This document shows positions 60,683 to 61,909 of a stretch of DNA of 64,000 bases, piece by piece. Origin of the DNA: Eledone cirrhosa (Eukaryota). The stretch spans positions 35,418 through 99,417 of the forward strand of contig CAXHJY010000412.1 of NCBI GenBank assembly GCA_964016885.1, read 5' to 3'. Every line of letters starts with the position of its first letter. Position 1 is the first letter of the stretch. The translations under genes were made by a program, and so were the position numbers. A model generated the notes under the pieces. That model searched no databases. It was not told the DNA's origin and saw nothing but the letters and a program-made list of their open reading frames with translations.

Positions 60683-61909
60683 ATTAATACAATAACAGAG
60701 ATAGTTTAAAGCTAATCTCTGACTGGTAACCATCTCACTCAACAAACATTAGGTTATATTTTAATATAAACCCAATTTAAGGGTTTGGGGTGCTAACAAT
60801 ATGTATTATGTCGAAAAGCCAGTTGTATTATTTTATGAGATATAAATAAAGTTAAAATATATCTCTCTTTCCAAACAATTGTTTCATTATAAGTTTTCTA
60901 CAAATTCGGAGAATATTTCTAGTTTATGTAGAAGCCTAATATACATTCATGTAAGAATATATTTAGGTGGGCGCTTATAAATCATCAGTGGATGCCCATT
61001 AAACCTTGATATAAGAAAAAACATTTCTTACCACGGTTAAAAATCATGTCCGTTAAGTTGCACCTTCCCGCATCGAATGACCGGCATATTTGAAAATCCA
61101 GCAGTTTTTGACTGAGGAAGTGTTATAGCGTCACTAAGCGGGAAGGGGAGACAACTACGATCCACGAAAGGAGGAAAAAAAATAATATACACGCGGGTTA
61201 ATCAGTTTATTCGAAAACATTATCAATCCAACGTGTTAAGAACTCAATTGAAATTAAAAAAATAAATATATGCGTGTATAAATTACACACGCATATAGAT
61301 ATTTTCTTAGGCTAAAATCAGAGGTTGTACCTGAATAAGAAACCGCATCTCGTAACCGTAGTAAATACGGAAAGTTATGCTTAGAAGGGCAAATGGGAAT
61401 GTAAATCACCGGCCGAATTAAGAGTAAAATATAAAACACACGCGGGTTAATTAGTTATTTCAAAACTAATATCAATTCCTCGTGTAAAGAACTCAATTAA
61501 TTTAAAAAAATAAATGTATGCATGTAATTATATACATAGGCATAAATATATTTTCTTAGGCTAAAAAACAGAGAAGTTACAACCAATAAAAACCACAATA
61601 TCGCACAACAGTAATAAATACGGAAAGTCAAATTTATAAGGTACCTGGAAATAAACACCTCTGGCCAATCAAGAGTAAAATATTAATACAATAACAGAGA
61701 TAGTTTAAAGCTAATCTCTGACTGGTAACCATCTCACTCAACAAACATTAGGTTATATTTTAATATAAACCCAATTTAAGTGGTTGGGGTGCTAACAATA
61801 TGTATTATGTGGAAAAGCCAGTTGTATTATTTTATGAGATATAAATAAAGTTAAAATATATCTCTCTTTCCAAACAATTGTTTCATTATAAGTTTTCTAC
61901 AAATTCGGA
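60683..61909 (-). mobile_element. Putative large retrozyme / non-autonomous PLE satellite: 999-nt non-coding unit as a 1.23-mer (228-bp direct repeats 60683-60910 and 61682-61909)
   Basis: Repeats offset by exactly 999 bp with about 3 differences; no substantial ORF; a complete hammerhead overlaps the left repeat and its 3' half lies in the right repeat; TA-rich flanks. Confidence 0.75.
60870..60992 (-). ncRNA. Type I hammerhead with an 80-nt loop II insertion
   Basis: TCCA-CTGATGA-TTTATAAG-[80 nt]-CTTATAAT-GAAA-CAATTG-TT|TGGA; predicted cleavage between 60874 and 60873. Confidence 0.75.

Follow-up and report, generated by a model that had tools for sequence, protein, structure and literature searches.

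In a non-coding tandem repeat of the octopod Eledone cirrhosa lies a type I hammerhead ribozyme motif whose stem II domain is enlarged and branched; it is part of a 64,000-nucleotide (nt) stretch of genomic DNA (referred to as the window; assembly GCA_964016885.1, contig CAXHJY010000412.1, positions 35,418 to 99,417; source genome 3.0 Gb, 1,796 contigs). As judged from sequence, the repeat is a retrozyme likely mobilised by the enzymes of Penelope-like elements (PLEs), probably of the Hydra clade, and its hammerhead, with an 80-nt branched stem II domain, likely cleaves after GUU in part of the molecules, probably as a dimer; a probability of about 0.7 is assigned to this reading. The hammerhead and the retrozyme type are already known, as are retrozymes travelling as PLE passengers; what appears to be new is the oversized, branched stem II domain.

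All parts of the motif occur on the minus strand in the order CUGANGA, GAAA and UH, with the motif open at stem I (Table 1). Core boxes, the UCCA/UGGA stem I, a 7-base-pair (bp) stem II (UUAUAAG/CUUAUAA), an 80-nt loop and its inner hairpins had been parsed at 60870-60992 in a preliminary description of the same DNA that left the strand unstated, and this parse is borne out. An equally strict descriptor gave one match in the window and none in 300 block-shuffled windows, and the motif is not a chance occurrence. Position H17 is U, and both loop II hairpins are present in the minimum free energy (MFE) fold (z -2.08; 7 of 200 shuffles equally stable). At 10.1/11.1 the window copy carries a U.U mismatch instead of the usual pair, a point absent from the preliminary description, and in place of a regular R10.1-Y11.1 pair the 40 aligned copies described below have U.U in 34 rows, A-U in five and G.U in one. 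Since U.U is a natural, tolerated hammerhead variant (PMC3088659; PMC7229834, cited, like the papers compared below, from their accessible parts) that also occupies 14 of the 26 published Hydra rows (PMC8557442), it lowers the expected rate and leaves hammerhead membership unaffected. The window copy also has a private G>A at 60920, by which an inner pair of the second hairpin is lost. In most subfamilies stem II is lengthened to 8 bp, and the window copy has a C.A mismatch at the added pair.

Table 1. Parts of the hammerhead motif and of its host repeat in the window (positions are those of the window).
Feature	Position	Strand	Remarks
Type I hammerhead motif, stem II domain enlarged and branched	60870..60992	minus	all parts found in order
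UGGGC 5' of stem I	60994..60998	minus	complements GCCCA 60968-60972; candidate pseudoknot or inhibitory pairing
Stem I 5' arm	60989..60992	minus	UCCA; CCCA in subfamily A3; U-A replaced by C-G in 5/40 aligned rows
Core box CUGANGA	60982..60988	minus	N7 is U in the window copy, A or C elsewhere in the family
U10.1 and stem II 5' arm	60974..60981	minus	subfamilies vary U/A/G at 10.1, opposite U11.1
Loop II domain, 80 nt	60894..60973	minus	stem II and two hairpins form a predicted three-way junction
Hairpin P2a	60935..60967	minus	covarying pairs C-G/U-A and G-C/A-U; 87% of cells paired; distal part variable, pairs less well
Hairpin P2b	60896..60933	minus	helix of 7 bp, then an internal loop and an inner helix of 3 bp; covariation seen in A3; 98% of cells paired
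Stem II 3' arm and U11.1	60886..60893	minus	
GAA and palindromic stem III ACAAUUGU	60875..60885	minus	in other subfamilies ACGAUCGU or a palindrome that is longer and bulged; predicted dimer helix
Predicted scissile bond after GUU	between 60874 and 60873	minus	start point of shortened genomic copies
Stem I 3' arm UGGA	60870..60873	minus	
Full non-coding unit, 999 nt, subfamily A1	60683..61681	minus	stop-free frame at most 66 codons
Second unit, 5'-truncated	61682..61915	minus	98% identity over 234 nt; contains only the 3' half of the second hammerhead
Internal duplication of ~250 nt, diverged (76% identical)	61177..61686		accounts for the A1 unit exceeding A2 and A3 in length
190-nt tail, cut site to fixed 3' end	60683..60873	minus	3' end is the putative start of reverse transcription
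TA-rich target sequence at insertion 3' end	60667..60682		

The pattern of core plus stem II has 1,989 exact matches in the genome and none in the reversed control. An alignment of 40 copies was assembled from the window copy, two copies found by BLAST and a set of 37 out of 42 hammerheads; the regions that supplied this set were chosen by hand to be diverse and mostly belong to the first 100 of the 1,989 matches. In this alignment 92.3% of the cells of the named structure are paired, and double-changed cells number 51 versus 11.6 after shuffling (0 of 500 shuffles as high). Loop II keeps a steady length of about 80 nt across subfamilies and N7 is variable; at H17 all 40 copies have U, C or A, never G. 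RNAalifold, unaided, recovered stems I and II and both hairpins. Comparison of the window copy with one A3 copy, which avoids multiplying related copies, revealed an identical core (12/12) versus 35 of 51 identical unpaired non-core columns, and of the 35 pairs 24 were unchanged, seven doubly compensated and four broken. The seven double compensations among 18 changes correspond to P 7.5e-5 (P 0.004 against an A2 copy). Double changes occur in all three stems, with a single one in each among the named pairs, as well as in the two hairpins and the inner helix. Covariation across genomic copies had been put forward as a check on the preliminary description, and its outcome is favourable: the core is kept and the stems and inner hairpins compensate between subfamilies. 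The assignment to PLE/retrozyme-type hammerheads with a palindromic stem III stands as well, the palindrome being held in three distinct sequences across subfamilies alongside the covariation in the stems.

The window insertion consists of 1.23 head-to-tail units (60683-61915) of a non-coding tandem repeat in which every unit carries a single type I hammerhead. In related subfamilies the unit measures about 730-745 nt, at 77% identity, or 702-708 nt, at 68% identity across hammerhead and tail. All 26 A1 insertions examined share their 3' end within a few bases, 190 nt beyond the cut, and have variable 5' ends, which is the pattern of retrotransposition, and the 3' flank is TA-rich in 19 of the 26. 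Units of one insertion differ by 1.0%, versus 2.6% between insertions (1.9% versus 4.3% in A3), and have minority variants in common, a likeness that fits an origin from a single circle or a single tandem transcript. In multi-unit A1 loci with overlapping units, the stem II G>A change was present in the upstream and absent from the terminal unit at 3 of 12 loci, with the reverse at one of 12; this unevenness hints at multimeric templates. At its 5' junction (61908-61957) the window insertion carries a 50-nt copy, 98% identical, of flanking DNA 487 nt away (62395-62444), a filler that looks like a templated insertion during repair. Three pairs of independent insertions have a common 5' end (L003/L022, L004/L007 and L015/L030, at unit positions 621, 131 and 411); two of these shared ends are TA-like microhomologies, and position 621 has no such explanation. 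At four further loci (L433, L434, L452 and L454) other hammerhead families are joined straight to the tail of the window's family without a TA run, reflecting either insertion into an AT-rich patch of the tail or template switching.

The 5' ends of truncated copies accumulate at the predicted cut. Junctions from a TA run into the element were counted on the reverse strand over equal 62-nt gaps with 19-nt anchors, forward-strand counts being left out as inflated by overlapping matches; 281 junctions span the cut (-23..+38), versus 100 upstream and 107 downstream, with anchors that differ in conservation. A script check of 54 distinct loci, with five non-junctions removed and five re-read by eye, left 49 junctions: four at -27..-15 (TATAAT microhomology), one at -14..-3, five at -2..+1, 15 at +2..+11 and 24 further down. 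A tally made by eye, which went as far as 299 Mb of contig 2, placed 11, 3, 8 and 31 junctions in the first four bins. Counts at +6..+17 are inflated by GA or TA microhomology, and a matched pattern pair was also compared, each pattern consisting of one T of microhomology followed by G: there were 14 matches at +1 versus two at -4, of which 13 (14 by eye) versus one were family members (p 0.0009), and 13 of the 14 copies starting at +1 span the whole tail between the cut and the fixed 3' end. Run-off of reverse transcription on self-cleaved RNA is the simplest explanation suggested by this pile-up.

According to the proposed mechanism, reverse transcription would start about 190 nt downstream of the cut. 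On cleaved linear RNA it would run off at the cut and yield 190-nt copies, and on uncut multimers or re-closed circles it would read through and yield copies of 0.3-2+ units. DNA copies appear in this way to record both RNA fates, run-off and read-through, and would offer a countable handle on cleavage in vivo. The active form would probably be a dimer held together by the palindromic stem III. Predicted palindrome duplex energies range from -6.4 to -14.7 kcal/mol and the monomer stem III hairpin is unstable, and this combination of a weak monomer stem III with a stable palindrome duplex fits the low-activity, dimer-dependent PLE hammerheads described earlier (PMC4209133).

The preliminary description had spoken of a catalytic core split by an inserted domain, a wording that is not supported: the core order is normal, the domain is fixed in all subfamilies, and loop II deletions are rare singletons. 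No short-loop sister family was found among the 27 short-spacing matches carrying the family tail, of which eight are single, all-different loop II deletions, seven are full-length copies, either matched internally or carrying tail deletions, and 12 are nested or chimeric. An intron in loop II was rejected by eye, as GT-AG pairs leave no short loop. The extra domain is likely peripheral and not catalytic. By forming a three-way junction it may close and stabilise stem II, which is weak, AU-rich and U.U-closed, and it may tune cleavage through docking on the conserved GGG directly 5' of stem I. Tertiary contacts, regulation and recognition by reverse transcriptase had been suggested as its possible roles in the preliminary description, and a single candidate contact is visible: this GGGC can pair with the GCCC at the start of loop II, with GGG/CCC kept in 38-39 of 40 rows. 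As a pseudoknot the pairing is compatible with the active fold, and when folds are kept nested it displaces both stems I and II. Among the possible roles, docking and tuning is tentatively placed at the head, followed by a protein handle as a rather doubtful second and a merely tolerated scaffold as an unlikely third. The literature searched contained no natural branched 80-nt loop II, and papers or supplements beyond that search may describe long-loop variants; for a large stem II domain the family offers natural variants with compensatory changes, and none such was found in the same literature.

A second hammerhead group in the genome bears on the question of the helper enzymes. It was retrieved through 699 matches with the same stem III as the window's family and a shorter spacing, the 30 loci fetched for this search comprising 26 of the second group and four of the window's family. 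Its loop II is different, about 60 nt long and folded as one long interrupted hairpin, and covaries (75 double-changed cells versus 30.6 shuffled, 0 of 500) in a set of 30 of the 43 collected motifs, from which duplicates were left out, along with copies whose upstream junctions are inverted or rearranged; a 21-copy analysis agrees, and an internal GU/AC helix is near-invariant (29 of 30 rows). At 23 of 30 loci, 19 of them with a full-length loop by eye, the group sits about 600-800 nt downstream of open reading frames (ORFs) with a C-terminal GIY-YIG domain. These ORFs contain CxCX5C, CxxC and CxH, which Craig 2021 gives as motifs of the Hydra clade; a Neptune assignment for the helper-like ORF was rejected because the Craig alignment shows Hydra motifs, and Pfam gave no match for its C-terminal part. 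Predicted enlarged stem II domains are a recurrent feature of the PLE-associated hammerheads of this genome, in forms without detectable homology to one another. Among 30 GIY-YIG loci the descriptor found one short-loop hammerhead.

The window unit has no ORF and so lacks the reverse transcriptase (RT) and C-terminal GIY-YIG that define an autonomous Hydra-clade PLE; it does show the (TA)n targeting and Hydra-type hammerhead layout of a non-autonomous Hydra partner, the former being non-exclusive since Naiads target (TA)n too (PMC8557442). A Naiad link was rejected by eye, as in the published octopus Naiad (Naiad_Ovul 3' end, supplement of PMC8557442) GAAA precedes CUGAUGA. No autonomous element with a window-type hammerhead was found: of the five copies whose upstream DNA was read, four (L337, L362, L363 and L366) are separated from the upstream ORFs by a TA run, and L346 showed no ORF. 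A young Hydra-type family with open frames near 790 codons, and up to about 800 (3' ends at L410 and L407), is a candidate active helper. By eye, its 3' motif is hammerhead-like, with a U3-A8 core variant, a loop II of ~30 nt and a long stem III, and an inverted remnant of its end lies in the window at 63780-63907.

Several results weigh against the reading proposed here. Of the 11 insertions that exceed one unit, ten continue across the upstream cut site, and not one of the 26 long A1 insertions stops at it; most templates were uncut or re-closed. When folding is restricted to nested structures, the active monomer comes out 3.0-9.4 kcal/mol above the MFE. If 12 nt of upstream flank are included, the probability of stems I and II in the window copy is at most 0.01, in a model that cannot accommodate a pseudoknot. 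No double change is seen in the candidate GGGC/GCCC contact, and 12 of 40 rows have one of the four pairs disrupted. Invariance of core and stem II is by construction in the 37 of 40 rows picked by a pattern requiring both to be intact, and two of five covariation measures are weak (pair-count 26/500, pair-type 414/500), the shuffles ignoring relatedness. Beyond core and stem III, no sequence common to the family and the tails of two sampled Hydra families was found, in a genome with many further PLE families, and no ORF-joined copy was found in 40 hand-picked regions. In print, one of nine predicted Xenopus retrozyme dimers was cleaved in vitro, and the hammerhead of an Anolis PLE required protein, while insertion in vitro did not depend on that hammerhead (PMC11167929). 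The same Anolis work, the one biochemical study of PLE hammerheads, reported no RNA-seq reads ending at the cut and cleavage as not required in vitro, and the role of hammerheads in PLEs is stated as unclear in the accessible text of PMC8557442.

These points leave room for other explanations. That the motif arose by chance, or is a dead relic carried along by an amplifying repeat, would agree with the blank Rfam result and with the 95-99% identity of young copies, which makes conservation within a subfamily little informative; the absence of matches in the 300 shuffled windows speaks against it, and it is largely refuted by six helices in which subfamilies of 68-77% overall identity differ by compensatory changes, so that it is barely credible. 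Another explanation accepts a selected fold and attributes the pile-up of 5' ends to RT stalling at the 3' edge of the folded RNA, with cleavage negligible in vivo. The junctions are indeed scattered from +1 to +17 instead of falling on one base, many have TA or GA microhomology, and most long copies read through the site. However, the rise begins at the scissile bond (one junction in -14..-3 versus 20 in -2..+11, n=49), the matched sites give 13-14 versus one, the weakest helices are stems I and III and would form a poor block, and the not-G rule at H17 is held in 40 of 40 rows; stalling is accordingly rated highly improbable.

More serious, if still unlikely, is a real ribozyme in which the extra domain serves mainly as a binding handle for the helper RT or another protein, with protein-assisted cleavage. 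Copies without loop II were never amplified (eight different singletons versus 1,989 matches), autonomous Hydra-type families likewise retain a large covarying loop II with its near-invariant GU/AC helix, and cleavage by the Anolis PLE hammerhead requires its protein (PMC11167929). Against such a handle, the two hairpins of the retrozyme domain and the one long interrupted hairpin of the Hydra domain have no detectable sequence or model similarity, the Anolis protein-binding region lies downstream of the hammerhead, and the rarity of deletions may just reflect few master copies. A bolder proposal than the retrozyme reading preferred here would have the PLEs and retrozymes of this lineage repeatedly evolving large stem II domains as natural on/off modules, or built-in aptazymes, mostly shut so that uncut or circular RNA is copied and firing on dimerisation or protein binding; they would form a hidden class missed by models, and the footprints would prove germ-line cleavage of PLE-type hammerheads. 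Taken as a whole, this proposal is improbable.

That length-limited motif searches would overlook such a ribozyme had been anticipated, and rightly: Rfam gave no match in the window at the gathering score and, around the motif, 20 matches at E<=10 of which none is a hammerhead, and the relaxed core search of Craig 2021 limited the spacer to 7-17 nt (PMC8557442). Hammerhead counts based on Rfam or on short loops overlook entire high-copy families. With the same type of spaced motif, 11 of 30 matches in the genome itself satisfied both stem tests, 0 of 117 stretches in viral contigs satisfied the stem tests, and in metagenomes 0 of 119 among the matches listed satisfied both; the viral-contig and metagenome collections are mostly microbial and calibrate chance only. 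When the covariance model R1 was run on 18 sources, the window's family alone stood above E 0.03.

Comparison with known systems, as far as the accessible parts of the sources describe them, places the family closest to metazoan retrozymes lacking long terminal repeats (non-LTR; PMC7229834; 10.64898/2026.07.22.740005) and to Hydra-clade PLE hammerheads (PMC8557442). The former likewise are dispersed and low in GC, consist of tandem units that are non-coding and each contain one type I hammerhead, and have a weak palindromic stem III; axolotl HHR_Amex2 has U.U at the stem II base, as in the window's family (PMC7229834). With 702-999 nt, the units of the window's family lie at the upper limit of the reported 51-972 range or slightly beyond it, and the short loop II of metazoan retrozymes contrasts with the 80-nt branched domain of this family. 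With Hydra-clade hammerheads it shares the CUGANGA-U ... U-GAAAC layout (14 of 26 rows), a near-palindromic stem III, a 3' location and (TA)n targeting, and their stem I, mostly 3-7 bp, matches the window's type; their published loop 2, however, is 3-10 nt in 26 of 26 rows, and the longest in the table, in two plant PLE-X elements, reaches about 30-35 nt.

Minimal PLE hammerheads (PMC4209133) are similar in having a 7-8-bp helix II, a 4-5-bp helix I, a palindromic stem III, predicted dimer activity and low activity, whereas the accessible text on them describes no large or branched loop II. The discontinuous Clec2 hammerhead (PMC6765202, PMC6155905) is also a natural hammerhead with a long interruption, but is of type III and has its long stretch (150-1,500 nt) in helix I, in a mammalian mRNA, unlike the structured stretch of fixed length that caps stem II in the window. 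In pseudoknotted hammerheads (Perreault et al. 2011, PMC3088659) a base-paired contact between loop and flank can likewise link stems I and II; the candidate contact of the window differs in lacking covariation support and in beginning at the three-way junction.

Further hammerheads and repeats were observed alongside these families. In an older Hydra-type subfamily (L171, L176, L177, L180 and L182, about 3000-3350) U replaces A9, a G10.1-C11.1 pair is present and the site is mostly GUC, and several other Hydra-type copies carry U4C. Many short Hydra-type copies (L094, L095, L100, L116 and L121) are inverted pairs that turn at or near the 5' side of the hammerhead. Hammerheads of unrelated families have a loop II of 42 nt (L159:600-700) and of 35 nt (L048, minus strand, about 2373 from its end). 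Within the window, a short-loop type I hammerhead of another family lies on the plus strand at 10217-10250, and a 91-bp inverted repeat, 98% perfect with a 26-nt spacer, occupies 63250-63457 and is probably another inverted PLE-type insertion.
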